From the NCBI GenBank assembly GCA_964460615.1, contig CAYWPX010000004.1, positions 19,116 to 83,115 of the forward strand: DNA of 64,000 nucleotides. The letters are read 5' to 3'. The notes under the pieces were generated by a model. The model searched no databases. It had not been told where the DNA came from and saw nothing but the letters and a program-made list of their open reading frames with translations. Made by a program: the position numbers and the translations under genes. Positions 6,486-64,000 of the stretch are shown here, piece by piece. Numbering within the stretch: position 1 is the first letter of the stretch; every line of letters begins with the position of its first letter. The DNA is from an uncultured Planctomycetia bacterium. GTDB lineage: Bacteria; Omnitrophota; Gorgyraeia; CAYWPX01.

Positions 6486-8960
6486 TTACTTAATCTTTAT
6501 AACCGGCACAGGCTGTTCATTTACTCTTGCCGTAAACGAACTCGAAGAACTGTTGCAATGAGTCCCGGAATTATCCTCTACCCTTAGAACAACGCGGTAG
6601 TTTCCGCCTTTTTTATAAACGTGTTTAACCTTAACGCCTTCTGCCGTATCGCCGTCACCAAAGTCCCACATATATTTCAGGGTATCTCCGTCAGCGTCAC
6701 TTGAGGCTGATCCATCAAAGTCTGATTCTTCATCAGCGCAACATACCAAATTAGGGCCGGCATTAGCAACCGGGGGAGTATTCACATAAACTTTAGTAGT
6801 AGCCGAGTCGATAGAGCATGGCGTTTGGCGCTTATCATCAACCGTAACCCTTACTGAATAGGTCCCGCCTTTTTGATATGTATGGCTTGCTTTTGAACCG
6901 CCTTCAGAAGTTACGCCATCTCCGAAATCCCAGCTATATCTCAAGCCATCATTATCCGGATCGGATGAATTTGACGCATCAAAATCCATTCTTGAACCTA
7001 CGCATGCAGCTTCGGCTTTTGCGAGCGATGCGGTTGGCCCGGAATTTACGAAAACGCTCAGGCTGTCAGTTGCAACTGAACATTTTGTCCCCTGCCCGTC
7101 GTCAACTTCAAGAACCGGCCTATAGCTGCCGCTTTTTGCATAAGAATGTTTAACTTTTGCTCCTTCAGCACTCATTCCGTCTCCGAAGCTCCATTTGTAA
7201 CTCAAAGCGTCTCCATCCGGATCTTTTGAAGCGGAACCATCGAGAGCGATTTCAGTCCCAACGCAAACAGTAATGTTCTCTCCCGCTACTGCGATCGGCT
7301 GTTTGTTCAATTTCACCTTTATAACATCCGAAGCCGAAGAACACGGAGATTCAGAGCCGTCATTAACTGAAAGCACTACGGTATAGCTCCCGCCCTTCTT
7401 ATATACATGAGTAACCTTTTCGGCGTTACCCATTACTCCGTCTCCGAAATCCCAGTTGTACTCCAATTTATCGCCATCCGGGTCTTTTGACCTGGAACCG
7501 TCAAATGTGATCTTGTATTCTTGACCAGCCGGCAAACAGAGATCCATGTCTTCACCGGCATCGGCTATGGGGCTCGAGTTTATGGAAATCATTTTTTGAA
7601 TAGTTTCTATACTACAGGCTGTACCCGCGTTATCATTAACGGTTAACCTAACTTTGTAGGTTCCGCCCTTTTCAAATATTTTATTTACTCTTTTACCTTC
7701 GCCTGAAGTGCCATCGCCGAAATCCCATGCATAGGAAAGATTACCCGGCGAATCATCTTTTGTCGCGCTTGCATCAAAGGTAATCTCGTCTCCAACGCAT
7801 GAACTTTCAGGAGCCGAAAATGCCGGTTCAGGAGGTGTATTCACTTTCACTAATTGCGTTGTCGTTGACGTATCGCATGTTAAACCCGATGAATCCTGAA
7901 CCGTAAGAGTAACGTTATACTGTCCCCCCTTTTCATATATATGGGTAACAACCGGCTCGGTACTTGTTGTCCCATCTCCGAAATCCCATAAGAAAGAAAG
8001 TTTTTCATTGTTGGGGTCATAAGAACTTGTAGCGTCAAAAGTGAACTTGTTGCATTTAAGGTCAGGAGCCTTTACCATAGGCATAGGCTTCTCCGGGGCT
8101 ACAGGCTTCCCCGCTCTATAATATATAGGAAGGATATTACCTTTATCATCTTTAACTCTAATAGCTGCGTTGGCATATCGCTGAGTCTTTTTCGTTATCA
8201 CATATTCTAATCTGTGCGGTTGTTTGGATGTATTAAGGTCCAGAGCGGTTTCCGTCCATTCGGCGCTTGCAGAATCGTTAATTCTGAATCTTCCGCCCAG
8301 ATCAGGATCGCGGGCTTCTCCGGATGCACCATCCGGGTCAATATCATAATTCTGTATAACTACCTTTGCTGTATCGGCAGGTATCTCAGGATAAAAATAC
8401 ATCTTGTCGCCTTTATTGGGTAATAACCTGAGGGAGATTTTTGGGCTCCAGGATTCGGCGCTATCAGGAGAGATCCTCACATTGAATAAATTCTGGTCTT
8501 CTCCTTCTAAGGCATTGGCAACAAGTTTGAATCTGTAGGCATTGCCCACTTTTTCGCCTTTTTCTTTTGCGAACGGGCCGAATGTGTAGACGGCTTTATC
8601 ATACTCTTTGGATTCGCCGAATTTCTCTTTCGCTAATACGGTATTCCCGCTTCCATATACGGCAAACTCTATTACGGTATCCCATCCGCTTTCAACATCC
8701 GGTTTCTGATCTAAAAAACCCCCTGTATCAGGGTCATATACTCCGATAGTCACATCACCTGTTGCATCTGCAGGAACGTCAATATACACCTCTTGATTAT
8801 GATCTACGTCATCTGCGCCATAATAAGGGTTGCCTTCCGGCCCAAATACATACAGGTACTTTGCCATTGAATAATCCTCAGGAACCGTATAGGCACTTGC
8901 CATTCCGGCTAAACTTATTAAAATTGCCGGGATCATTAATATAAATGATATTTTCTTCAT
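6486..8960 (-). CDS. Secreted protein with an N-terminal beta-sandwich region and 7 tandem PKD domains
   Basis: Signal peptide MKKISFILMIPAILISLAGMASA. Seven repeats carry the PKD signature WDFGDG(T/V), spaced about 85 aa apart. Confidence 0.85.
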   Translation of the reverse strand: MKKISFILMIPAILISLAGMASAYTVPEDYSMAKYLYVFGPEGNPYYGADDVDHNQEVYIDVPADATGDVTIGVYDPDTGGFLDQKPDVESGWDTVIEFAVYGSGNTVLAKEKFGESKEYDKAVYTFGPFAKEKGEKVGNAYRFKLVANALEGEDQNLFNVRISPDSAESWSPKISLRLLPNKGDKMYFYPEIPADTAKVVIQNYDIDPDGASGEARDPDLGGRFRINDSASAEWTETALDLNTSKQPHRLEYVITKKTQRYANAAIRVKDDKGNILPIYYRAGKPVAPEKPMPMVKAPDLKCNKFTFDATSSYDPNNEKLSFLWDFGDGTTSTEPVVTHIYEKGGQYNVTLTVQDSSGLTCDTSTTTQLVKVNTPPEPAFSAPESSCVGDEITFDASATKDDSPGNLSYAWDFGDGTSGEGKRVNKIFEKGGTYKVRLTVNDNAGTACSIETIQKMISINSSPIADAGEDMDLCLPAGQEYKITFDGSRSKDPDGDKLEYNWDFGDGVMGNAEKVTHVYKKGGSYTVVLSVNDGSESPCSSASDVIKVKLNKQPIAVAGENITVCVGTEIALDGSASKDPDGDALSYKWSFGDGMSAEGAKVKHSYAKSGSYRPVLEVDDGQGTKCSVATDSLSVFVNSGPTASLAKAEAACVGSRMDFDASNSSDPDNDGLRYSWDFGDGVTSEGGSKASHTYQKGGTYSVRVTVDDKRQTPCSIDSATTKVYVNTPPVANAGPNLVCCADEESDFDGSASSDADGDTLKYMWDFGDGDTAEGVKVKHVYKKGGNYRVVLRVEDNSGTHCNSSSSSFTARVNEQPVPVIKIK

Positions 8961-9530: not shown

Positions 9531-10247
9531 CTAATTATGGTAATCAGGAGGCCCATTGGGATCGCTCAAAATCTTTTTGGTATCATCTATTTCATAGGGG
9601 TCCTCAAAATCCACCCACAAAAACGGGCCTGCTACATGCCCATCAACAAAGAGCGCCATAACGGATATTTTTGAGTAATCAGCCTCACTGTTTCCACAAT
9701 GGCCTGGCATATTAAAAGGATAACACGACTCAAGCCAGACCCTGCTGGTTGGCCTTGTAATAGAAGAATAAGGTCTTGGTAGATTATTCGGTAGCGACGG
9801 TCCATAAAAGAGGATGTTCCAGTTTGCATAATAAGAATTCCCCAATTCCCTGAAACTGATAAACCCGTTTGACTGTTCTTTTGTATCGTCAGGACATTGA
9901 AATATTTTAAGGCCTGGGCTATTATCACTTGTAATATCAAGATATTTATTAAGGACTCTGTCTTTCGTCAGCAAATACCCAAGCCTGCCCTTACCGCCGA
10001 ATTCAAACTGGCTTGTGGTTCCTGGGATATTATCCCCAGGGGATGCAAAAAGAGGAAAAGAGCTATTATGCTCTTCCAGATACATTTGCCACGCTATTCC
10101 ATGCTGACGGAGGTTATTCAGGCATTGTATCCTTCTTCCCTGTTCTCTAACACTTGCCATCGTCGGCAAAAGAAGCCCAGCCAAAATTGCCACGATCACA
10201 ATAACCACCAAAAGCTCTATTAACGTAAACCCGTGGATTCTTTTCAT
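9531..10247 (-). CDS. Prepilin-type N-terminal cleavage/methylation domain protein (H-X9-DG / DUF1559-like pseudopilin family)
   Basis: MKRIHG|[22 protein letters not shown] is a class III signal peptide plus pilin helix. It shares the [27 protein letters not shown] block with the 1..622 gene. Confidence 0.75.
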
Positions 10248-22723: not shown

Positions 22724-23971
22724 TTAGGGTTTTACAAAAAGCGCCGCGCCGTCAATCCCATCCATTTCAACTACACGAAGCTCAACCTTTCCTTCCAGGT
22801 CCACAATATTTCTTTTATTCTCATCATAATCATAATCAAAACGCTCGTCATTGCCAAGGCTCATAAAATTTATCCCGAGCTCGGTGTCCCTATTGATGTT
22901 TTCTGAAAGCACAACACTACCCGGAGGATATTCGATCTTGAAACTGGTGAACTTATCCTGCCCTGATTTATCTTTTGCCAAGCTGATCGTCGCTTCATAT
23001 ATATTCCCTGATTCGGGCTTAAACTCCAGAACAATTGTACCTCTATCCTTAAGGCCCATTACATTATAAAGGGTAAGGGCTTTAACTTTCCTTGAGTTTG
23101 GCACAAAAAAATGAGTTTCGGGCCTAAGTATTATGCCTGTTCCTATATTTGAAGAATTTCTTATGCTGCAGTAATTGAGCAGGTCTTTTTTTAAAACCTC
23201 TTTTTTGTCTTTAGCATATATCATCCCGGATATATCCACCATAATCGCAGTCACCATGGGTAAAAGTTCCGGGGCTATCTGGCCGTTTTCATTAAAATTT
23301 ATCTTCGTATTGGTATTATCATAATATTCGAAGTTGCATTTAGTCAACTCAAAATTATCAGATACTCTTTCGGGGATATCATCTATTCTTTCTTTATAAT
23401 TCTTAATAAGCTTCTTAGAGTCCGGATCAAATTTGAAGGTCATAACAGCTTTTTCGAAGGTTGATTCGGGCTGATAAATGATTTTTATATTGCTCCCAAC
23501 CGGGAGAAAATCCTGCAATATAACCTTATCGTCGGGCTTGTACTCCGTTTTATGATCGCCATAAATAAATGTTATGGGAGTCGGCAGGTAATCCTTAGCT
23601 CCTTCTTTTTTGGCTTCGACTATAGGTATCGGAGACCCGGGTTCCAATGGAAGCTCAAGGGTATATGTCCTGTCGCTTGTTATATCATAAGGCCCTTCAA
23701 CCCATGGCGGCACAAAGGCTACCGAATGCTCCCCAGCACTCAATAATTTAAGCGAATCTTTGACGCCATAAGACTCAAATTTCCCTTCACAAAGACTTTC
23801 CATCACTTCGGACATTTTTTGCTGCAGGATCACATCATTCTGCCCAAAAAAATATGCATTCATGGTAGAATACAGCATAAAGACCGTAACACCCGCTAAG
23901 ATCGACGCTATGGCAATGGAGACCAATAGTTCGATAAGCGTCATGCCGGATTGTTTTATTTTTTTAATCAT
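22724..23971 (-). CDS. Large minor pilin / pseudopilin (prepilin N-terminal methylation domain, 415 aa)
   Basis: MIKKIKQSG|MTLIELLVSIAIASILAGVTVFML is a class III signal peptide. The remainder is a large beta-rich body. Confidence 0.7.
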   Translation of the reverse strand: MIKKIKQSGMTLIELLVSIAIASILAGVTVFMLYSTMNAYFFGQNDVILQQKMSEVMESLCEGKFESYGVKDSLKLLSAGEHSVAFVPPWVEGPYDITSDRTYTLELPLEPGSPIPIVEAKKEGAKDYLPTPITFIYGDHKTEYKPDDKVILQDFLPVGSNIKIIYQPESTFEKAVMTFKFDPDSKKLIKNYKERIDDIPERVSDNFELTKCNFEYYDNTNTKINFNENGQIAPELLPMVTAIMVDISGMIYAKDKKEVLKKDLLNYCSIRNSSNIGTGIILRPETHFFVPNSRKVKALTLYNVMGLKDRGTIVLEFKPESGNIYEATISLAKDKSGQDKFTSFKIEYPPGSVVLSENINRDTELGINFMSLGNDERFDYDYDENKRNIVDLEGKVELRVVEMDGIDGAALFVKP

Positions 23972-25130: not shown

Positions 25131-25592
25131 TTACCATTCCCTCGGAACCTGGCCGGAATAATCCCCCCATTTTGAATCCAGAGGATTCTTTATGTTAATA
25201 TAAACTTCCGCTGTGTCCGGGTGATACAGCCATCCCCCTTCGCTATATGCCGGTTCTTCGTTTGATACCGAATCAATATAAGTATTATTACCGGATTTTG
25301 AGCTTACAAGCTCAGGAGGCATTTTGGATAAATACGGCTTTTTCACTCCCAGATCAAGATACTGAGTTGTCAGTAGATCACCCAGGGTGGCAGGATATCT
25401 ACCTTCTTTGGCCCTAAAAAGAGTTATGCGATTCCTCAGAGAATCAAGATTTGTTTTTGAAGATGTTATTCGCGCCTCGACGTCAAACCCGATAAAATTC
25501 GGAATAAGCGTCGCAGCTAAAATTCCGAGTATAGCTATGACTATGAGTAGCTCTATGAGGGTGAATGCTAATTTGTAAGAATTGTTGTGCAT
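25131..25592 (-). CDS. Major pilin / GspG-PulG-like pseudopilin
   Basis: MHNNSYKLA|FTLIELLIVIAILGILAATLIPNF followed by a GspG-like body (..TNLDSLRNRITLFRAKEGRYPATLGDL..), 153 aa. Confidence 0.7.
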   Translation of the reverse strand: MHNNSYKLAFTLIELLIVIAILGILAATLIPNFIGFDVEARITSSKTNLDSLRNRITLFRAKEGRYPATLGDLLTTQYLDLGVKKPYLSKMPPELVSSKSGNNTYIDSVSNEEPAYSEGGWLYHPDTAEVYINIKNPLDSKWGDYSGQVPREW

Positions 25593-60700: not shown

Positions 60701-62576
60701 TGTTTTGCGTTCCACTTGTAGAACCTGAACTGGTAAAATTCGACTGTCCGATAACATAACTGGCGTTCATTCCGTTTGATATACTTGTAACATCATAAAC
60801 TGTGACACGGTTATTCCCGTATCCAACAACAAATAGTCTTCTATTGGTACTGTCATAAGCTAACCCTCTCGGGGTATAAAGCCCGCTTTGGGTTGTTGTC
60901 CCGGAGGAGCCGCTAAAGGTAGTCTGGCCTATTACATAACTGGCGTTCATACCATTTGTTATCCCGGAGCTCAGGTCAAAAACAAGAACCCTGTGGTTTG
61001 TGCCGTCAGAAACAAATAAATAATTTCTCGCACTGTCATATATTACATCTGTAGGCTGGTTCATAGTAGATTGCGTAGCAGAAGAACTATATGAAGTAAA
61101 ATCCGTCTGGCCTAAAACATAATCTGCCGCATAATCTACAAGGTGATCGGTTGAATCAAGATTAAAAACTAAAACTCTGTTATTATTCGTATCAGCAACA
61201 AATAACCTGTGATTTACAGAATCGATCGCAGGGGATCCAAAAGGCTGGCTAAACCCTCTATTATTTGGCCCGCCATTAATAGCCCCTGTTGTATAAACAG
61301 GATTACCCGATCCATCCAACTGACCCAGCAAATTGGATGCATTCATACCGTTTGATATAGAAGCAGTATTAAACACCATTATTCTGTTGTTAGAATAATC
61401 ACCGACATATAAATTTTGGGTTGTCCCGTCAAAAGATACGCCATATGGCGAATATAACCTGTTTTGCGAAGTTGTATAACTACTCCCTGACCATGTTGTC
61501 TGCCCAAGAACGTAACTCGCATTCATGCCATTTGACATAGTAGTAACATTAAACACCATTATCCTGTGGTTATTCCTGTCCGTAACAAAGAGCAGTTTAT
61601 TTGTACTGTCATAACCAAGGCCGCATACACCACTTAGTGTAGATTGGCTTGCCGAACCTGAAGTTCCTGTCCAGGTGGTCTGCCCTAAGACATACGAAGC
61701 ATTCATTCCATTACTGATACCCGAATTAAAATTAAAAACCAATACTCTGTTACAGCTTAGATCGCTTACGAATAAATTCTTTGTTGTTGAATCATAGGCA
61801 AGCCCTATCGGCCAGGTCATCGTATTCTGCGATGCTCCGCCAGAGTAAGTAGTAAAATCCGGCTCCCCAAGAACATAAGTAGCATTCATGCCATTAGTAA
61901 TGCCACCGGCCAAGCTAAATACTAATACCCTTCTACGATTTCCATCAGCCACAAATAGATAATCGTTCGAATTGTCATAAAGCATTTGTGCGGGATAATA
62001 AAATCCGTTCTGGCCTCCTCCTGTTGCGGTATTAGTAAAATTTGACTGGCCAATTACGTAGCTGGCATTCATACCATTTGTAATGCCACTGGATAGATCA
62101 AAAACCAAAACCCTATTGGCATTCTCTTCGGAAACAAACAATCGTTTGTTTGCGCTATCATACGCCAAATATTTAGGGCCCACCATATTATTCTGGGAAG
62201 CCGAGCTGACATTTGTTGAAAAATTAGGTTGTCCTAAAACATAATCTGCAGATCTATCCACAAGATTATTACTGCTATCAAGATTAAAAACCAAAACCCT
62301 GCGGTTAGTGACATCGGCAACGAATAACCTATGGTCAACAGTATCTACTTCAACGCCCATAGGTTGGTAAAGAGATCTATTACTAGGGGTGTCATTAGGC
62401 CCATTTTTTGTATAAATAGGTGAACCGGCATCGAGTTCGCCGGCAAGATTTATAGCATTTGCGCCATTTGTTATTGAAGCGGCAAAAGAAAAAATAGCAC
62501 TTCCACTTAAAATTAAAACGAAAGTGCTAATAATAACCAATATTCTGATATTTTTTATTTTCTTTTTAGTTTTCAT
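36795..62576 (-). CDS. Giant secreted or surface protein of about 8590 aa with these segments: Sec signal peptide; NHL-repeat beta-propellers; G/S/T/N-rich beta-helix-like repeat modules; LamG (concanavalin A-like) domain; CBM4_9-like carbohydrate-binding domain; C-terminal Ig-like domains; Pro/Gln-rich tail
   Basis: An uninterrupted 25.8-kb ORF. The likely start is the ATG at 62574-62576 (MKTKKKIKNIRILVIISTFVLILSGSAIFSFAAS), with an AAGGTG RBS 6 nt upstream. The track start at 62621 is TTG. About 14 NHL repeats of the type NNRVLVFDL/NNRIMVF span aa 60-795. The LamG signature spans aa ~2770-2975 (WYHIAYTV..YKIYVNGVE..GSIDEVRVYDYAL). The CBM-like domain spans aa ~4140-4290 (FESGTFETGDFTGWANE). 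There are large internal repeats. Codon usage and composition match the neighbouring genes. Confidence 0.8.
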   Translation of the reverse strand: MKTKKKIKNIRILVIISTFVLILSGSAIFSFAASITNGANAINLAGELDAGSPIYTKNGPNDTPSNRSLYQPMGVEVDTVDHRLFVADVTNRRVLVFNLDSSNNLVDRSADYVLGQPNFSTNVSSASQNNMVGPKYLAYDSANKRLFVSEENANRVLVFDLSSGITNGMNASYVIGQSNFTNTATGGGQNGFYYPAQMLYDNSNDYLFVADGNRRRVLVFSLAGGITNGMNATYVLGEPDFTTYSGGASQNTMTWPIGLAYDSTTKNLFVSDLSCNRVLVFNFNSGISNGMNASYVLGQTTWTGTSGSASQSTLSGVCGLGYDSTNKLLFVTDRNNHRIMVFNVTTMSNGMNASYVLGQTTWSGSSYTTSQNRLYSPYGVSFDGTTQNLYVGDYSNNRIMVFNTASISNGMNASNLLGQLDGSGNPVYTTGAINGGPNNRGFSQPFGSPAIDSVNHRLFVADTNNNRVLVFNLDSTDHLVDYAADYVLGQTDFTSYSSSATQSTMNQPTDVIYDSARNYLFVSDGTNHRVLVFDLSSGITNGMNASYVIGQTTFSGSSGTTTQSGLYTPRGLAYDSTNRRLFVVGYGNNRVTVYDVTSISNGMNASYVIGQSNFTSSGSTSGTQNRFFAPKGVAYDDGTTVKRLFVVDSSNQRVMVFDVTSITNGEDAINVLGQPDFSTTWGTCSQSKLVNPEGAAYDSIDKRLFVADYGNSRIMVFDVNEITNGETALYVLGQPNFTTSSYGLTQNKLSYPRGVTYDSTNKIIIATDTGNNRLMFFDGTPPLTRYWVASGSGNWSDPNNWSSSSGGDGGAGAPVTGDTAIFDGANGKNGNLVIDTNISVGTLDFQAGYSGTITQGANTITASIIMNLMGTDLTLGADLTCGGNLTIGANRTLSLNGKNLVVSGTFSNDGTVKLNGDETTVTLTGDTNSGLFEYNASSGTKSIKNIGYYNLKIDGGATFRLSTASTTTVYGNLDIISGTLDTNDGTTNRTLQLSGSGNITITGTLNANSSNIYCPGNWDSSNGVFNKGTSAVYFSGTSGIKTVKLGNGQSFNNLSKSSGSTLQPLSNIEIGGIFSVASGIFDQGSYDLRVVGNVSVNGGGTWQNNGTGDVTLGGGVANSGTITFNGNGGTAAGGDNDDILIRSTVDNTQRAWSGTGTFTMIDVNVKDQTRTGTAIAVVSGTDSLNNVGWIFVGANTVCGSIYTSDLVSKVEGGLSVKAVINGTTTYNTTTTSNGDFVFNDVSLVANDKMIIYISGSAVKGSLVTKVSTGGTLSGLEFYAGFVTLRHEAGITQLTNADLISAKISDTDILYDMSGNNAIFTQGLYVPRNKIYVPGGNISIQGNWDIRGSFTPGQYDVTFNGSSAQTMNGSMELLFNSLTISNTSGVSAYGYQEIYISSHLTISEDALYDIGNAMFSASEAQFDNNGTFKIGGGSYPIINNDLDSGTIWYYGNSYWYGDSLPLGSTYNNLKISDYFLVFSDSGEVYIYVANNLDLSGDLYINGYDVFINTDYDGNGVGSFNHTSGTVTVSSGSLSTYLHIYSTGATYLNNIVVGSDFMGSSGYLYVYSDNISGASSTDSITLNEGATISCSEMSWSAYIGFFSNTNIAINGAISLPLGVMSSMDFNFDYDNTDAAGSESFSIGPNGNVVGYSNSVNVTKGGSWTASSGDFLSKISASMATIKSNTGAFTLNTGLSSSIATLTLQAETDLTINSPLAIAGSVTFNANNNIAVNDNITATAATSVSMKADNDGNGTGDVSILAGKTVSLGANTTFYFKQNSNIVSADLFTGETPRITGGGGSSITLYSTKNDITINSDLTRTYCLFYAANDLNINSNIVTTSSTSNSFYADYDSSGVGLFKQAQSSTITSSYNLLIYSSYSSGNAGSIGNIVTTGSTATPVFYKRAGASNAVYNAYDGVNINSNYAISIQSGVTINAQNSNWSCKYTFSAVGTFNGGTSTLTFNGTGNQSFSNGATNTYNNIVINNTGVSPNNRITPNATLTVNGDITITAGVLNLGTSSPNVTIGGNVTIANGATWTKQVTAERSVMFTGAGKIFKDSNVTTQNIGTVNINGSLSIDATGNGMTVQTVFINNGGTLAVGASILTSVGLLQIASGGTLSATTGTIYCGSNWDNTNGTFIYGSSTVVMNGTGSISCGVFAQVPKRFYNFTINTSGTITLNTGICLANGGKLKLQSGTLNGAYDMYVYASANSFENNGIIYGAQKPTVDLLINSTNPASPNILPGVTSQNPYPHLNIRGGVGDASSYGKLGGNIYCSNFMIATWQTNDVGVIDTDSPNNYSITVTGDMNIGATWDSSHSSQLLANNSTISVTGYVNIRPNTSANVSAIVFGDGTSYAAPSMTIGGDFTNSGTLTGGNATINCAGSWSGTGSFNYGTSTINLNGTASGKTFDPGTAALYILKVNGQGGYWTLVNHNLTVSNSLEVIRGTFDMSTFNLTANNYVIVGGNSGETGILRGGSGNMTIGGAGAGHLDIRSGTFVASNTVNMSDAGSFNCAAAENADWMTNTSTFDINALDFQLIGTFNNLIIEDTRDTGVSSPSGEATINGDLTINGSSTGPGLDPFGLTVNGSLVLNGDALVAIQQGYYLPVAGSVTINGNANIAIIDDGGIEVGGNWTNNTSGGFSSTEYGVIKFTGSGTSIISGNNMFYNLDLSTESGKTIKFEAGSLQIIQGIIWLSGSDESHKLTLRSTVDDTRYTLRLYEDFSATYVDVKDCVSDSTLISAGEGCVDSGNNRAWSFGRLMGWWKLDGDALDYSGNGYDGTETGITYGSGVMVEYGRNPGTASASFDGLTSYISIPNSPEIVGSYTVEAWAKLTGNGTEIAIFGSRSPWDSSFDFKFEGGTTIHGDIGDGDEWVTTYADASYAYSLNTWYHIAYTVTTTGYKIYVNGVEAQAENFAQHSLPLLSDSNHELVIGNAGIGHSEFFKGSIDEVRVYDYALAPTDIANHYKNGWNGEGEWSSSSNWAAGQLPATEGRALIESGTVLLNSTYEVGSFGMSGGTLDGSEGTLMVNGNLSFSNGAFTKGLSTIIINNSGSITSNNQQFNNLAIYPGNLVTIADNLNVTGTLDIVGTLTQTTNNVTAGSVIVEAPGLWENFSTGDVVLGGSVSNDGIIDFEGNPSAGDPISITSSVTGTQRNWQGAGVFTLLDVNVKDQSCIGGTPASIAPGSSTNSGNNTNWVFGEGASNTIAGSLYNAIGGSKITDAKTIKVSINGSTPTQATSSNGDFSLTTSDTLVANDIITVYLSGDTLKASTVTKVSATGDLTGINIVQDYTTIRHEGSITSLTNSDLANMNNLSDTDKLFSVSSGNATFTKGINVLDGKTYTPTGNVVSSGDVAINNGSFLNIYTGTSSYNLSCVNMLINSGGTLFAGTNNSTGTSTITVSGNWTSTSGTFTYGKSTVNLTGTGAINPSTVTAWTAKFYNLTCGASGQVTTLNLTFGVDGVLTIGAGTLTMTGSNTIYLYKSGDALSLDSNAIVDTSFSFISASPQNLPAHTYKRNINIAGSSSTVNQTGEVTIDGHLSIVGDGYAARVDAFNTNSFPLTVKGNLAVGYNTTNQDNNKTLTLGNSTVNIGGNFYQYGVFNSNTSTVIFNGSTAQAIYINAGSFNKLTINNSANTVSLYSTTTTVGSDFTIQSGTFNPNGKTLNVTGNFLKSGGTLYINSTTDLLSVTGNFTVTGGTTNTTSAAGSGAVIQVRGDISISGNNSFDFNYGRIEMLGAGNSAISVSGTNNDFGYNASTYFDINKTNLTDTVTLNSNLNGKHFRHNSGTFDVNGFTASFTGVYYGSTGSQPAKLKMSSGTLNIGRMNYNGGTNSPWYCGPNWSEDISGGTITVYGGQHATYGTAYFANGSNFTPTGGTFRFGGWDTASIFVAETDTADFNFYNLTISDGIYSKSVVIHSSSNPISIKGDFVINQYTSFNANGKTINLSGSWVSSGTFISGNNEVILDGAEGVKYISNNIGSFYDLTISGTGSWSLSGNATVSNEFSISNGNLSLDTYALNIAKYSQTGGTVTGENGIITSTGDFSITGGTFNPVNSTLTLDTTTNNIAFNAGGKQFNNIIFQNNGEMNDKSVTVGAGNYSVNGNIYLFGGPTNEIGLDGSVSSPNFTVLGGVHTLGNVFESGTFETGDFTGWANENPNAQASIASDDAHSGLYSLDVQRNIYSSDYESWSVVSSDFDPMDALRVSLYIKGYVEGCCDDLKVFVKDSEDVYHELHSFRDENYDDWTQVSWDVTPYSPITGIKFEGYNDVQDVSTALIDDITVLVKGHTGSRQGSIYPGSGVWSVEGDLDLTDINLVSGNSEFKLTGSASASVYGTSSFYKLTLETTLGGLDKQISFEKGKTQTVTNTFSIAGASGRVVLLRSTEDDVDGAVDDRYTIAIPGNITSGISYADIKDSVVTGGTIRAPWSNGCVDSGNNSGWIFGDIIAGSLYDAIGGAKITSSKNLKLTVNGALAGTGSTSNGDFSMFSTSAISENSVIAIFVDEDAVKASTVTKVSSSGDISGVNIFQNFATLRHEDGITSISNTDLAIADNINDSDCLVSVDGANKATFSNGVYILTGKVYNPGANIDVAGDWTNGQAFTCGTSTVTFNGTTTQNLKPGNSSFYNLVISNTTANGVQVSTTQLSTLSNGRVTISAGAVLDINTVNFYPYYITNNGTLRMEGGQTVGSYQPINADAGTVELDGSGSYTAFPFSAGTVFYNLKFSGSGTWTISIPSVIPYGYYFYANNNLDIASNITFGGYQWGSAYFYADYDNNGSGTFTQTAGTITIPYVTVYIYSSGNTTLGNNTRTNSYPGPSLMVYSDNAADDSIVVNGAIIGEPGLYANKDITLNGTITNSMAMMGAVLRADYDSTGTGDIMFGGSSQITSSSVTLEKASWTIDNLDMFYKLSSVTSISLYTRGPSGSVTINTPISTGYPYIYIYTNNNININENLTFSSSTGSIVFNADNEANGSGDIIIASGKQITLGASQSLTLKQASSISTSNLFGGGTPKISGGTGGYIILTSTKNDITMDSVLSRTYFAVYAGNDLFVNSNLTGTTSGGTVFQADYDSNGAGAFKQAQGTTIQSVGQVSLYTSGTAATVGNINLTGSSGYLYLFRRVAGSSVSYTVYDNATITTAGTGTGNALFDGVTLYMGSSNWFIKGLFQINSSGGASIVPQNSTITFNGATNQIITGVATFNNFVVANTGSAGNNRVRLASTLTINGNFSLNSGGVDATYGNPNITIAGASNTFTLASGTTWLKQTNANTVTFSGAGTIIKDSNATTLDMGNAVINGSVAVDSTGSGMKTTTLTINPANSLNISNTTLTILGTGTPFTNSGTFTTTGSTVIYTGTTTDTNITATQYNNLALTPSGLTTYILAGNLSGATAMTGTLTLNTDARFDINGKNLTTGGNINIAANTARLQQNFPSGSFGGNTIALGGNMNNSGGGTINISGVSGNNIIITSTNTTQRNWTSTNVTIDYATVSYQNCTSGTIRVNNGLDAGYNTNWMFGAINTVSGSLYDGIGGSKITESKVVEVSINGSSSTFWTTTSNGDYTMEVSGYIGNNIVNVFVAGDDVEASTVTTLGAAANIAGLDMFQDYVTLTHEADKTEITNSDIANAAELGDPAILFSADGDDITFDKGVYIISGKTYNPGGNILVAGNWTNGGTFTYGTSTVTFNGSEVQTLKPGLSFFYNVIISNTTADGVQLSTNALNTATGGRVTISEGAVLDINALGMAAFYLTNQGTLRAEGAQTIITGFPMNTDSGTVELDGSGTYNGLPFFDGTIYYNLRIIGSGSWTLTKTSNYSIYCNNNFDLASNLTINNSFTYSITIYADYDNDGSGRFNQTAGTLTSNVAQNNLNIYSGNETVINNINLTGWMTAANIYSDNNPGTELDNITINGTLTLSMMASYYLYSNGNITINSVISTAPTFTCDYDNNNAGDILFGASGGLSNASAYLKKGGNWTFDTAILDKLTSCTYLTVQSMTGSITINSPITKAYSYLYLYANTDLIINDNITLNGSNGSVYLHADYNNTGAGDISIASGKTVTIPAGSALSYKQTSSLAVSDLYSGTPAKISGGTTSSLVLSSTRNNLTIDQDITRTNIYLYAGNDLNINSNLTSTTSGIQLVADWDSSGAGSFKQNSTSTILDQGSNLDIYSSGDTGTIGNITITPANGGVRFYKKAGAQATYTVHDNAILRSNTSSGNAHFTIDSSSVVVNAGASTWLVKGTFSNYGTFHGENSTLTLSPTAANNYFRTGGSNGYYGTINIQPASGISCGVVGELTNVTGTLTVVSGIFDLANQDPNVTLSGNVVIASGATWLKQDLAGRTTTFNGTGKTFKDSNATTQDLGLVTIIGSLTVDSTGSGMKVTNLTINSGKTLDISNSNLVILGTGTPFTNSGTLTTTGSTVIYRGSTTQTNITATQYNNLILTPATATTYKLADNLSLGTAMLGSLTINANATLDLNGKNLVTGGDINLTAASSKLVQNYPTGSLGGNFFYLGGNMNNSGGGTISIKGTSGNNIVISSSDNVNKRNWTSTNVTIDYATVSYQHCTSGVIIVSNGTDAGNNINWRIGAVVAISGGVYDENYGNLAGVRNVSLVVYYALTDSVSRFDGQTDAGGNYTIYVNPYAANDVLSGFMNIDGVETGGVIVVSAPSSNPVWLNIYQNSVTVGEVGAVYEKTVTASDLTRVDRNAVGDTDIPYQYSGGTLTLDSGFNLIQDLEKTLDLGATNLNMSGSIDNYGSINATGGTVTLSGTSKFIGDYNEGGFSLNNLRISGSYILNVYNGTAITGTLTIDSGASFTSMDYLTCANIVIDGAMDITSGTLAVTGTGTPLTKGVNGTFTTTGSTVFYTGSGTTTNVATLGYNNLTFAPDSATTYNLSGDLTGVNIMTGNLSIYSTATLDVRPSTTDYSIACNNISISGILDASASSSTFTVGGNWNSSSGNFNCGSSTINLVGLAPIFNTGDDKSVFNLNTVTAGQTVTIAGRTYIDGTFTVGSFLGNKVTVLNPGKILDLRNAENPIVFVGSYNQNPGYNIDGLYVTFNPADDGIIPAGRYGSAYIYPRGSYTLTMQGSCTFGVLTLYPQSNGQTSTLDTGGFDLNMSSLTLSHANGALKYGKVIARNSTVNITGNVMIYSSDTGNKNIFDAGSANISVGGNWTNNDTFIKGTSSITLNGAAGQSITTGGALNGFNDISITNASSSGISFLDSLYTDTLSVNTTNLSSGVVLKFKNGVTHTIADSLSLTGVANKLITLNSTLAGSQWSLSAPSGTIVSYVKVKDSNASSFDITANHSANDSGNDDLLASPRWVFPSSTITWLGSSSTGWGLGANWDGGYVPNTTDNVVIAQASRNPLLDVGRAVKSLTINANGDLTCGDKLLTVTENIVNNGTLRTSTGGFTSAGFTSTGSYIATGTNIIITTNDVAISGVFTHNSSTTLFMSGTANLSSTPPLYNLMIEEDSVITPSGTIIINGLYSREPATSSATVNWTTNSSILELRSDINQTLLDSEYYSLVLSKDSAPHVTYELSTDITVENVLSIGSGAVLDTTSDNYNITLGGNWENAGTFLANQSTVEFIDASRTSIVGGSTDFFSLSCYQPGKVFLFEAGTTQSIAEGGELILMGTGGGLITLARYDGSGTDRWNLRINKSYSVTGVNVSDSAVLIPDGTNYTITASDSNNGGNNTVPPWIFLGVKRYWVAQNTAFWNSAANWSDYESGSGGLSVPEAGDMVYFGSEGLGDCNVDVDITLVSMEINNYSGTINFGNHNVNVVGDLNIRNGGKIISGTGSTVIGGSFSIGTASEAVFTNSNLDIKNNMYFNGRFVAPAASKSFTLKGNFTNDLGQFVNSSGTVSFYSTMDSEISGDNTFYNLNCTTGGKKLSFADSSTQIIASDLTLASSSTGIITLQSSSSAGTWSINFTKSGVEYLSYDYLTVTGGISNIPVYVKNSTNVTGCINWYKVPVTGDTISTANVQPASLVAGSTGEVMVDFTTSKQLPSNAIIDVVFSSSFTLNSKGTTSVSSSTIDGDLVVSNPSTTTVRIVRSSGSLESSGTERLTLTSIMNPISVGSDGTYSIYIKLPDNNETVIDQVENIAADTFRLGSFIVSASSQQVSGVEFEITITAKGADNVTITNYSEEINLATTYVTPDSGTKTLTPESHSSWSNGVATVNAKYNDCGTIVIKAAQSTDPTIEGESGNIAFIPYDFVVTTSAYNASTTSNASSTATSTGSSSSVTGTSQTVNRPFSIDVAARSASGGVTPNYAGPANLAIQYVTPSTNQQGTLSKAVLSDADFNNGLARLSGVTYNKWGAIRIVASDGTDATKKGISQIITFNPNNFAISLSRPLASRNFYYVNEPFNMDLVALDYNGAKIGNYSGTVGISDTSFGLPASYTFSASDLGLHKFVGLKGSSEELKTFTVQDRINNSVTGSGNFTIRQGTIKIISTTSPVGAKEVDVQIVDSSGNIITQDSSTRFTISLSEAIDDASSTSEAVTKPVIIMNGVAKFIVRDTQGEVVTITPTSTPLLLSVPGTVTFGTVKGAGVNVRMWREVRPMIAPKVKTIVTPSISTSPVKSIAPQPQQLAPQPQQVTPQATTPKEGMDKEKNMFQKDNSQDKLDSE

Positions 62577-62610
62577 TTTACACCTTTTTGGGCTTATGCA
62601 TAATAATAAC

Positions 62611-62640
62611 AAAAAACCCAAGCTCCAATTTCCGCTTGGG
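62611..62640 (-). terminator. Hairpin plus U6 intrinsic terminator/attenuator about 35 nt upstream of the giant gene start codon
   Basis: The minus-strand RNA reads cccaagc-ggaaauugga-gcuuggg followed by UUUUUU. It is located between the structured leader (62641..62870) and the RBS of the giant gene. Confidence 0.5.
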
Positions 62641-62679
62641 TTAATAAGAAAATTTAAAGTTAATTTTTCTTAATTTCGG

Positions 62680-62870
62680 CAGCCCTGCTATCCCGAAACT
62701 TCGGGACCAGAAGCTTTGCTCCGACGCCTTATATTTCAGCTGTCGGAGTTCCGACTTCCAATAACTAATTACTGGAACATCGGAACGTCCCCGGATTACT
62801 CCGGGTTTGCCTCCCGACGTTTGCAGTCGGGACCCGCACCAAGCGGATTTTCGCTTATATTCTAATATAA
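62680..62870 (-). promoter_or_regulatory. Highly structured region of five consecutive near-perfect GC-rich hairpins; candidate 5' leader, riboswitch-like element or small ncRNA. Strand uncertain
   Basis: Hairpins, each in an AT-rich context: cccgaa-ac-ttcggg; ctccgac-N16-gtcggag; ttccga..ccagtaattagttattgg..tcggaa; ccgga-ttac-tccgg; cccgac-gtttgca-gtcggg. The ORF-track 85-aa ORF 62641..62898 overlaps these hairpins and is probably not coding. Confidence 0.35.
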
Positions 62871-63175
62871 GTATATCATAAGAATGGTTATTTATCAATA
62901 GGTCCCCATTTTTAATGTTTTTTTAATATTTTTCTAACATTTCTTAACAAATTTAACTTTTTCTACAACTTTTCAAAAGTTATTTTATATCTTTACTATA
63001 ATTATAGCTCTTTTTATCATTCCTGAATTCCCCCCGACTACTACATTCGAGGGCAGGTTTTGTCAGGAATCTATCATTTTGTCATACCTGCCTACCGGTT
63101 TACCTGCCGTAGGCATGGCAGGCAGGCCCGAGATCTTTAGTCGGGTATCCAGTTCTTATTTATAGATTCCCGCCT

Positions 63176-63222
63176 GCGGCGGACAGGCCCGCCTGCGCGG
63201 GAATGACAGATTATTAAGTTTA
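63176..63222. repeat. Left copy of a 41-bp perfect direct repeat (ggacaggcccgcctgcgcgggaatgacagattattaagttt) flanking the GIY-YIG gene
   Basis: The identical 41-mer recurs at 63769..63809. It contains the hairpin cccgc-ctgc-gcggg. Confidence 0.85.
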
Positions 63223-63264
63223 AGCTCTTTTGTCATACCCGCATTGTTCTTGGCGGGTATCCAG

Positions 63265-63555
63265 TTATTTTATCAATTCAGGATATAAGTCATCCCAATT
63301 TGGATTATCTTTTTCAATAAGCCTGATTTTCCATTCTCTTTTCCACTTTTTCATCTGTTTTTCTTTTAATATGGCAGATTCAACATCAGAAACTTCATCA
63401 AAAAATACCAATTTGCTAACATCATATTTCTTTGTAAATCCATCCACCAAGCGATTCTTGTGTTCAAATACTCTTTTAATAATATTATTTGTTACTCCAA
63501 TATACAGCGTTCCATTCTTTTTACTTGCAAGGATATAGACATAATATTGGCTCAT
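63265..63555 (-). CDS. Small GIY-YIG nuclease-family protein (96 aa)
   Basis: MSQYYVYILASKKNGTLYIGVTNNIIKRVFEHKN contains the GIY...YIG motifs with conserved R and E. It is a stand-alone catalytic domain. Confidence 0.8.
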   Translation of the reverse strand: MSQYYVYILASKKNGTLYIGVTNNIIKRVFEHKNRLVDGFTKKYDVSKLVFFDEVSDVESAILKEKQMKKWKREWKIRLIEKDNPNWDDLYPELIK

Positions 63556-63761
63556 ACTTCTTTAATTAAATTTCCTTTGATTAACTAAACCCTGGATTCC
63601 CTTAGGAATTTTAAATCATAAAATTCCAAGGACTTAGTCTCCCCCGAAATTGCAAAGCAATTTCTGGGGATAAAATCCTGGAAATTGAATCACAATTTCT
63701 CAGGACCGGAAATGCTACGCATTTCTCGGGCCCGCCTGCCGGCCCTCGGCTTCGCCGCGAG

Positions 63762-63812
63762 GCGAGCGGACAGGCCCGCCTGCGCGGGAATGACAGATTA
63801 TTAAGTTTTAAT
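63762..63812. repeat. Right copy of the 41-bp direct repeat
   Basis: Matches 63181..63221 exactly over 41 nt. Confidence 0.85.
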
Positions 63813-64000
63813 ACCGTGGTGCCTGGCACCTAGGTTGAAGATGACGATGAATTCGCCTTTAGGATTATTTTTAGAAAAGTGCGCGATTGACTCGCTTACC
63901 TTTTCGCGCCTTACCTCTTCGAATTTTTTTGTAAGCTCTCTTGAAACTACAATTTTAATATCGCCAAAAATTTCTAGTATATCTTCCAAAAGCCCCAAAA
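63801..64000 (-). CDS. rsmI: 3' end of a 16S rRNA 2'-O-methyltransferase RsmI-like gene (tetrapyrrole-methylase family); partial, continues beyond the window
   Basis: The C-terminal peptide ...VVSRELTKKFEEVRREKVSESIAHFSKNNPKGEFIVIFNLG resembles the RsmI C-terminus (ELTKLHEE..RGT..E....KGE.V.VI.G). Confidence 0.45.
   Translation of the reverse strand, partial: LGLLEDILEIFGDIKIVVSRELTKKFEEVRREKVSESIAHFSKNNPKGEFIVIFNLGARHHGIKT

Follow-up and report, generated by a model that had tools for sequence, protein, structure and literature searches.

What decides whether a bacterium transcribes a gene of 26 kb? The question is raised by a stretch of 64,000 nucleotides (nt) of DNA, hereafter the window, from an uncultured bacterium of the Omnitrophota (assembly GCA_964460615.1, contig CAYWPX010000004.1, positions 19,116 to 83,115), in which a giant gene of 8,593 codons (62576-36795) is preceded by a leader crowded with GC-rich hairpins. 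Coordinates are those of the window, and the giant gene and its leader lie on the minus strand. We put at roughly 80% the probability that the element is a riboswitch of the cyclic di-GMP-I (c-di-GMP-I, also GEMM-I) class in the 5' leader of the giant gene, that it carries two double-hairpin insertions and that its terminator decides transcription. Judged by its conserved nucleotides, the leader RNA would bind c-di-GMP.

The only non-tRNA match to Rfam at the gathering score in the 64 kb is to c-di-GMP-I (RF01051), at 62675-62738 on the minus strand (38.4 bits, with the gathering score set at 35; E = 5.8e-4 in the search of the whole window). The alignment covers the junction, the second hairpin (P1b) and the 3' GCC, and squeezes the first hairpin to 6 nt. 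The true first hairpin, GGCAAACCCGGAGUAAUCCGGGGACG, is located 66 nt farther upstream (62811-62786), and two additional hairpins, Ha and Hb, separate the two pieces. This hairpin, P1a, reads GC/AAA/CCCGGA-GUAA-UCCGGG/GAC/G (62810-62786), with a 6-bp stem, a GUAA tetraloop and 3-nt internal loops AAA and GAC, as RF01051 requires of its first hairpin. Against the RF03167 model it scores 21 bits over positions 12-35, where the consensus is matched perfectly. The Rfam model anchors on the loop of Hb rather than on P1a because that loop (62741-62726), which reads AGCUGAAAUAUAAGGC, imitates a canonical 5' linker with GGC attached (CUGAAAAAGGC in L030 and L035, both from Omnitrophota). The resemblance could be due to chance, or it could be the remnant of an earlier tandem aptamer.

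The remainder of the aptamer core is readily recognized. The AAA linker between the two hairpins is present as C-AAA-GC at 62718-62713. P1b (hairpin 62715-62681, AG bulge 62689-62688) and the following 3' G-C-C (62680-62678), at which the aptamer ends, align to model positions 40-87, with the AG bulge and the G-C-C kept and the receptor columns (CUAA, UAU) deleted. When Ha and Hb were deleted in silico, the sequence aligned end to end with five canonical aptamers from other loci, giving 40 invariant columns, and every conserved core nucleotide was found to be intact. The nucleotides that contact the ligand in Vc2, G20, A47 and C92 (PMC4744006), correspond by alignment to G62811, A62717 and C62679, which speaks to their presence in the sequence only. 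The nucleotides of the interhelical C-G pair (PMC4744006) are likewise present, as C62787 of the GAC loop and G62688 of the AG bulge.

The first insertion consists of Ha (62785-62749), which begins right after G45 (62786), and Hb (62748-62719), which is flush with Ha and whose last nucleotide precedes C46 (62718). The two hairpins are therefore placed between C22-G45 and G21-C46, which together form the 2-bp stem at the base of P1a, generating there a four-way junction that contains no unpaired nucleotides. The G21-C46 pair is likely to bridge the insertion. We searched for relatives by scanning one genome per GTDB species with the pattern GGCAAACC-N12-GGGACG-N{40,70}-GCAAAGC-N{24,50}-GNTNCC, which returned 38 genome loci; by our own estimate about 1 would be expected by chance. 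Six of these loci are nested or tandem canonical aptamers from Acetothermia/Bipolaricaulota. In another five, from Steroidobacteraceae/Lysobacterales relatives, a canonical aptamer happens to be followed by a chance GCAAAGC, and one more, L013 (Solirubrum), looks like a chance match and lacks a GNRA loop. The other 26 loci contain 27 instances of the window's architecture, distributed over Omnitrophota, Planctomycetia, Elusimicrobiota, Auribacterota and one unclassified metagenome-assembled genome. A metagenome scan, run with the gap set to 30-60 nt compared with 67 nt in the window, returned a single contig, L040, as the 28th instance (28 sequences, 27 loci).

In all 28 instances, the sequence between GGGACG and CAAAGC forms exactly two hairpins: the first begins immediately after GGGACG, and the second abuts the first and has as its last nucleotide the one preceding CAAAGC. 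The P1a of the window recurs unchanged in L030, L035 and the unassigned contig L040, and the Ha and Hb stems vary widely across the instances in both sequence and length (Ha 12-42 nt, Hb 19-47 nt). Because MAFFT could not align hairpins this variable, pairs were counted in a trimmed, gapless alignment of 29 sequences including the window, in which the outer 5 bp of each hairpin were kept. Standard pairs occupy 96.9% of the alignment cells, compared with 65% for shuffled columns, and 161 cells are changed on both sides, compared with 48. For covariation the score is 0.82, whereas shuffled columns reach 0.20 and slid partners no more than 0.19. Of the ten insertion pairs counted, nine covary (five of five in Ha, four of five in Hb), where the Ha/Hb boundary was taken from per-sequence RNAfold predictions and the G before CAAAGC was imposed by the search pattern. 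Thirteen of the 29 instances reach the gathering score of RF01051, several of them with partial alignments. A same-strand open reading frame (ORF) of at least 60 codons starts within 400 nt downstream in 22 of the 28 related instances; among the other six, L012 has no such ORF, L003, L004 and L025 stop at the end of the locus, and the ORF of L010 and L023 begins only ~390 nt away. Downstream of the variant loci we find genes for type IV pilin-like proteins, RlpA-like DPBB proteins, transglutaminase-like (BTLCP) proteases, a response regulator and secreted proteins, which is the usual GEMM regulon.

The second insertion is located at the 5' end of the aptamer. In canonical aptamers a 'gaaAAa' linker stands immediately 5' of GGC, and most variant members have a GAWAAR linker before GGC together with a short strand, 5' of the linker, that is complementary to the sequence after GCC. 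In the window, the linker is GAAAA at 62853-62849, as identified from the Rfam consensus and from the comparison described below, and two hairpins stand between it and G20: P-1 (62848-62833; AUCCGC-UUGGU-GCGGGU in the register considered here) and P0 (62832-62812; UCCCGAC-UGCAAAC-GUCGGGA), which abuts GGC. A P0 hairpin flush against GGC is shared by the window, L011 (Omnitrophota) and L004, L026 and L031 (Elusimicrobiota). All five P0-type members retain the linker farther upstream, where it reads GAAAA in both Omnitrophota and GACAA in each of the Elusimicrobiota loci, and in all five the stretch from linker to GGC consists of exactly two flush hairpins, the stems of which are unrelated in sequence (n = 5 sequences, without a formal statistic). 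Deleting P-1 and P0 restores the canonical GAAAA-GGC, which is why we describe the window's aptamer as a canonical core with two double-hairpin insertions. A P1 helix derived from the flanks was not found in any of the five. The three Elusimicrobiota loci also share GUCCGACAAA...UUGCYGAUGGUCU ~60-85 nt upstream of GGC, a motif that spans the linker together with the 5' arm of a long P-1, and each precedes a homologous gene for an outer-membrane/TPR protein of ~600 amino acids.

The aptamer is framed by the signals expected of a transcriptional leader. A promoter-like site at 62898-62870 (TTGATA at 62898-62893, a 17-nt spacer with TGn, TATACT at 62875-62870) agrees with the consensus at 10 of 12 positions and has TG before the -10 hexamer; as judged from this consensus match only, transcription would start near A62863. 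The aptamer is followed by a GAAAU spacer and a hairpin composed only of A and U (62677-62645 in all, hairpin 62672-62645), evident both as an inverted repeat and in the predicted fold, which may act as a spacer that buys time for ligand binding. The intrinsic terminator, AACCCAAGC-GGAAAUUGGA-GCUUGGGUU followed by U6 (62642-62611), starts ~35 nt downstream of the aptamer. It has a 9-bp stem (62642-62634 paired with 62623-62615), a loop of 10 nt and a U tract at 62616-62611 on the transcribed strand, with a predicted energy of -13.6 kcal/mol. A consensus terminator scan missed it because the 10-nt loop exceeds the 8-nt limit of the tool. The U tract ends 34 nt ahead of the start codon (ATG 62576-62574; Shine-Dalgarno AAGGUG 62586-62581), and a consensus scan found no promoter-like site in these 34 nt, so every giant-gene transcript must read through the terminator. 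The leader folds far more stably than shuffled sequences on the minus strand (z = -7.9) and on the plus strand (z = -8.6). Since hairpins fold on either strand, fold strength alone does not reveal the strand; the element is assigned to the minus strand by its Rfam match together with the orientations of the U tract and of the gene.

The original prediction, made by eye, had described five consecutive GC-rich stem-loops in AT-rich DNA at 62680-62870, followed by a minus-strand hairpin-U6 terminator ~35 nt before the giant-gene ATG. The hairpins are found where it placed them, forming a flush chain within 62863-62611, and the terminator is as described, whereas the count has to be raised to six (P-1, P0, P1a, Ha, Hb and P1b) plus the AU-only hairpin. 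Its reading of the region as a riboswitch or attenuator is borne out by the succession of a c-di-GMP-I aptamer and an intrinsic-terminator expression platform between the only promoter-like site and the giant-gene start codon, and an Rfam scan, which it had proposed as a check, returned RF01051 on the minus strand, supplying the class that it could not name. It had seen no resemblance to transfer-messenger RNA (tmRNA), RNase P, signal recognition particle RNA or 6S RNA. In agreement with this, none of the four has an Rfam match at the gathering score in the window or with E up to 10 in 62000-64000, and ARAGORN found no tmRNA. A mini-ORF of seven codons (62601-62578; AUG CAU AAG CCC AAA AAG GUG UAA) lies between the terminator and the giant-gene ATG. 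It covers the Shine-Dalgarno sequence, ends 1 nt before the ATG and has no Shine-Dalgarno sequence of its own; it is probably a chance occurrence.

The strand that could couple the aptamer to the terminator was located by complementarity. Nucleotides 62639-62631 (CCAAGCGGA), which comprise the 5' arm of the terminator and the start of its loop, are perfectly complementary over 9 bp to 62847-62839 (UCCGCUUGG), the 5' arm and loop of P-1. The resulting antiterminator duplex has an energy of -17.1 kcal/mol, compared with -11.9 +/- 1.9 for dinucleotide-shuffled leaders, of which 24 in 2,000 are as good. The antiterminator and P-1 are mutually exclusive, as are the antiterminator and the terminator, and the forced terminated and antiterminated folds are 4-5 kcal/mol apart. 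No uniform ON or OFF design emerged across the loci, and the partners of the terminator arm fall in no consistent part of the aptamer. The best of these partners have energies mostly between -9 and -15 kcal/mol, with values reaching -18 for two loci, which are largely within the range of a single shuffled control, the window's own leader.

On balance, we favor an OFF switch, in which c-di-GMP would promote termination. The antiterminator destroys P-1 and thereby excludes the aptamer fold. The ligand-bound fold, in turn, presumably requires P-1, because P-1 is conserved in the subtype and returns the linker to the vicinity of G20. We had previously considered P0 to be a permuted replacement of P1, combined with an ON switch; this model was dropped when P-1 and P0 proved to be an insertion behind the conserved linker, and the same finding moved us from ON to OFF. 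The proposed switch would be kinetic in nature. Transcription of the leader would begin at ~62863 on the minus strand. When c-di-GMP is scarce, the terminator arm, as it emerges, would nucleate on the open loop of P-1, using UUGG as a toehold, and invade P-1; the terminator could then not form, and the polymerase would go on to transcribe the 26-kb gene. Bound c-di-GMP would lock the aptamer fold, P-1 included; the terminator would form and transcription would stop after ~250 nt.

Several observations weigh against this model or parts of it. The Rfam score exceeds the threshold by just 3.4 bits, in an alignment that bypasses the true P1a and takes the Hb loop as a pseudo-linker. No flank-derived P1 helix was found next to the binding pocket, at most 1-3 bp being possible between the 5' flank (of the linker or of GGC) and the 3' flank of GCC; this helix is not part of the Rfam model. 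The sole close relative of the leader, on an independent metagenome contig (L001; ENA ERZ4216102), is identical throughout, with four single-base differences elsewhere in 877 aligned bases, and an exact-protein look-up returned this contig and one short Logan contig, neither of which adds sequence variation. The covariation in homologous loci that the original prediction had named as a check is strong for Ha and Hb across the variant loci, and none supports this particular leader, its antiterminator and its terminator. The significance of the antiterminator is modest (p ~0.01), and the energy gap between the terminated and antiterminated folds is the same with and without the aptamer constraint (nearest-neighbor energies), so thermodynamics does not show a coupling between aptamer and antiterminator. 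L011, the nearest analog that has a terminator, contains no comparable pairing between P-1 and terminator. High c-di-GMP usually switches on the production of adhesin-like surface proteins, a prior that points to an ON switch and that is matched by the neighboring ATPase with its c-di-GMP-binding MshEN domain. Finally, no GGDEF or EAL gene was seen among the 30 other ORFs of the window that were scanned.

An ON switch is possible, if doubtful. Here, the long-range helix between 62847-62839 and 62639-62631 would act as a P1-like outer closing helix around the whole aptamer. Ligand binding would compact the aptamer and stabilize this helix, the 5' arm of the terminator would be sequestered and the polymerase would read through, following a logic that can be likened to that of pbuE-type ON switches; P-1 would serve as a holding hairpin of the ligand-free state. 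The minimum-free-energy fold of the full leader indeed closes the aptamer with the long-range helix. The terminated state is ~5 kcal/mol more stable in the nearest-neighbor model, which would make termination the default from which the ligand must rescue read-through. A giant secreted NHL/lectin protein beside an MshEN ATPase also suggests induction at high c-di-GMP, and the original description of GEMM proposed ligand-induced expression for terminator-bearing members (PMC1950547). However, the helix uses up the 5' arm of P-1, a hairpin that is kept in all five P0-type members and that positions GAAAA by G20, and it should therefore be incompatible with the binding-competent fold. Moreover, it is not adjacent to the pocket: P0, the 6-nt linker, GAAAU and the AU-only hairpin intervene. 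We therefore retain the OFF switch as the preferred model.

It is rather unlikely that the leader does not respond to the ligand at all. As one form of this, the aptamer could be a relic that no longer binds c-di-GMP, its terminator working as a constitutive attenuator or as one modulated by a protein or by Rho. The near-threshold Rfam score, the missing P1 helix and the displacement of the canonical A-rich linker by ~37 nt would all fit a relic, and weak binding despite conserved contacts is known for some c-di-GMP-I aptamers, Vc1 among them (PMC4744006). In contrast, all conserved core nucleotides are intact, and both insertions are recurrent, covarying and flush, such that the core is restored, which is the signature of selection for the fold and not of decay. 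We consequently regard decay as improbable.

The original prediction had also offered an independent small non-coding RNA. In this scenario, the region would be a trans-acting small RNA gene with its own promoter and terminator, and transcription of the giant gene would be independent of it. In favor of this, a structured RNA of ~250 nt is indeed enclosed by a promoter-like site and a strong terminator. However, no promoter-like site is present in the 34 nt between terminator and ATG, the body of the RNA is a recognized cis-regulatory aptamer, and 22 of the 28 related instances are followed on the same strand by an ORF of the kind described above. A separate small RNA gene is thus very unlikely and is not needed to explain the locus, although the terminated leader would itself be a discrete RNA of ~250 nt. 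The idea that the hairpins are repetitive extragenic palindromic (REP)-like or miniature inverted-repeat transposable element (MITE)-like units without RNA function, of the kind found around an upstream GIY-YIG gene (GC-rich palindromic units at 63020-63260 and 63600-63810, one of them resembling P0 with 74% identity), can be virtually dismissed, given that the leader hairpins are not copies of each other or of those repeats, that a curated RNA family is matched and that it is the architecture, not the sequence, that is common to loci in four phyla.

To place the preferred riboswitch among known systems, we compared it to the canonical RF01051 aptamer of Vibrio cholerae Vc2. The two share the GGC-AAACC-stem-GNRA-stem-GGGAC-G element, the C-AAA-GC junction, the AG bulge of P1b, the 3' GCC and the contact nucleotides G20, A47 and C92, as well as a position in the 5' untranslated region, a terminator as expression platform and an association with genes for pili, secretion and surface proteins. 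The window's aptamer departs from RF01051 in being about twice as large, owing to P-1/P0 before G20 and Ha/Hb between G45 and C46, and in having no detectable P1 helix from the flanks; its terminator is clear of P1b and instead competes with the inserted P-1 ~200 nt upstream. The c-di-GMP-I-GGC and c-di-GMP-I-UAU families (RF03167 and its sibling) have the same scaffold, in keeping with the 21 bits that P1a scores on RF03167. These families are defined by changed pocket nucleotides. In the window, by comparison, the three contact nucleotides are canonical and the change is architectural. In classical OFF switches, such as Clostridioides difficile Cd1 upstream of flgB, the antiterminator consumes an aptamer helix. 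The window is alike in that aptamer fold and antiterminator exclude each other, as do antiterminator and terminator. It is different in that the shared strand is part of a peripheral inserted hairpin at the extreme 5' end and not the 3' strand of P1, which is why the antiterminator has to be a long-range helix over ~200 nt. GEMM members with a GYRA tetraloop lack the 11-nt tetraloop receptor, and AAA links their two neighboring hairpins (Weinberg et al. 2007, PMC1950547). The window resembles them in its GUAA loop and in a P1b without the 11-nt receptor, whereas insertions in the 5' linker or the basal 2-bp stem are absent from the description in PMC1950547.

Tandem c-di-GMP-I aptamers form a further point of comparison. 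Two variant aptamers occur in tandem in L030 (2719-2984), a variant aptamer is followed by a canonical one in L012 (5306-5807), and in L035 (2521-3116) riboswitches are stacked, with a flavin mononucleotide riboswitch on the opposite strand, a canonical c-di-GMP-I aptamer and a variant aptamer directly after it. The window, in contrast, contains a single aptamer, and its extra hairpins are not a second one, even though the Hb loop resembles a 5' linker. A nested arrangement is seen in the six Acetothermia/Bipolaricaulota loci (L002, L005, L028, L029, L033 and L038), where the P1a-CAAAGC of a first aptamer is followed by a short hairpin and a complete second aptamer. In the same six loci, G(U/C)AGCUUUGCA follows the second aptamer and is complementary to the GCAAAGCU junction of the first; it may be an anti-aptamer element. 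In two Auribacterota loci (L021 and L036), a local hairpin (GUGGAGCGAUCCAC and GUGGAACAUGCCAC) abuts the 3' GCC in place of the 3' P1 strand of other members, which may represent a third way to replace P1.

The riboswitch class is known, and what the window adds is a structurally expanded form that current models detect poorly. A description of the insertion variant was not found in the literature searched, most subscription journals lying outside that search. The chances seem even to us that the insertions define an unrecognized c-di-GMP-I subclass, with a seven-helix aptamer and a perfect four-way junction in P1a, which would be widespread in Omnitrophota, Planctomycetia, Elusimicrobiota and Auribacterota, with more than half of its instances missed by the models, and through which, in Omnitrophota, c-di-GMP would gate a giant gene for a surface or secreted protein while also acting via the adjoining MshEN ATPase. 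The insertions explain why RF01051-based annotation detects too few of these riboswitches in the Planctomycetes-Verrucomicrobia-Chlamydiae (PVC) group and related phyla, where 13 of 29 instances reach the threshold. They also indicate that two defined points of the c-di-GMP-I core can accommodate modular insertions of double hairpins, and the expanded aptamer offers structural biologists a natural five- to seven-way junction. The giant genes of Omnitrophota are an active topic: they have been described with consistently flanking type II secretion system/type IV pilus (T2SS/T4P) genes and with NHL and ConA-like lectin domains among their repeat classes (10.1101/2023.11.21.568195; 10.64898/2026.06.07.730766), and neither source mentions c-di-GMP or riboswitches. 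If the broader reading of a distinct subclass is correct, it would provide the first regulatory handle on when the ultra-small, host-associated Omnitrophota deploy giant proteins. A second-messenger riboswitch that, ~250 nt into a 26-kb transcript, either cuts it off or lets it proceed is a concrete, testable mechanism for controlling such a gene.

The gene context fits control by c-di-GMP. The giant protein starts with a signal peptide, followed by NHL repeats, and contains a Laminin_G_3 (ConA-like lectin) domain; a search for orthologs of its N terminus gave only NHL-repeat look-alikes (35-50% identity) and no syntenic leaders. The first gene after it (36569-34779, minus strand) encodes a T2SS/T4P ATPase (T2SSE) with an N-terminal MshEN domain. 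The N terminus of this ATPase (LIGEILVKKGIISRDQLNIALEEQ, then KLASILMKLGFVGEEDIGIALSEQ) resembles the tandem 24-residue c-di-GMP-binding motif, with the leading arginine of the first motif displaced by two residues. MshEN is one of two widespread c-di-GMP receptor domains (PMC12448109). On the same strand, immediately after the giant gene, a secretion/pilus cluster comprises this ATPase, a histidine kinase, a response regulator, a ParA-like ATPase, PilM, PilN, PilO, a secretin, T2SSF and pseudopilins. The window also encodes a protein of 824 amino acids with PKD/LapB-repeat-like matches (6486-8960, minus strand) and three proteins with prepilin-type N-terminal methylation motifs (9531-10247, 22724-23971 and 25131-25592, minus strand), which together with the secretion cluster make up a large surface-apparatus region. 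The best named matches of carB in the window are from Omnitrophota (69-73% identity), and a pyr operon is also present. On these grounds an origin from a CPR organism is rejected, although the NHL-repeat look-alikes of the giant protein were CPR-like.

Upstream of the leader, the GIY-YIG nuclease gene (96 amino acids; 63265-63555, minus strand) is flanked by the two palindrome clusters at 63020-63260 and 63600-63810. Their units are of the type GTCATNCC-stem-loop-stem-GGNATCCAG, the unit resembling P0 being located at 63127-63145, and an exact direct repeat of 43 nt (63179-63221 and 63766-63808) occurs within the clusters. These clusters look like MITE/REP-like elements tied to the GIY-YIG gene.

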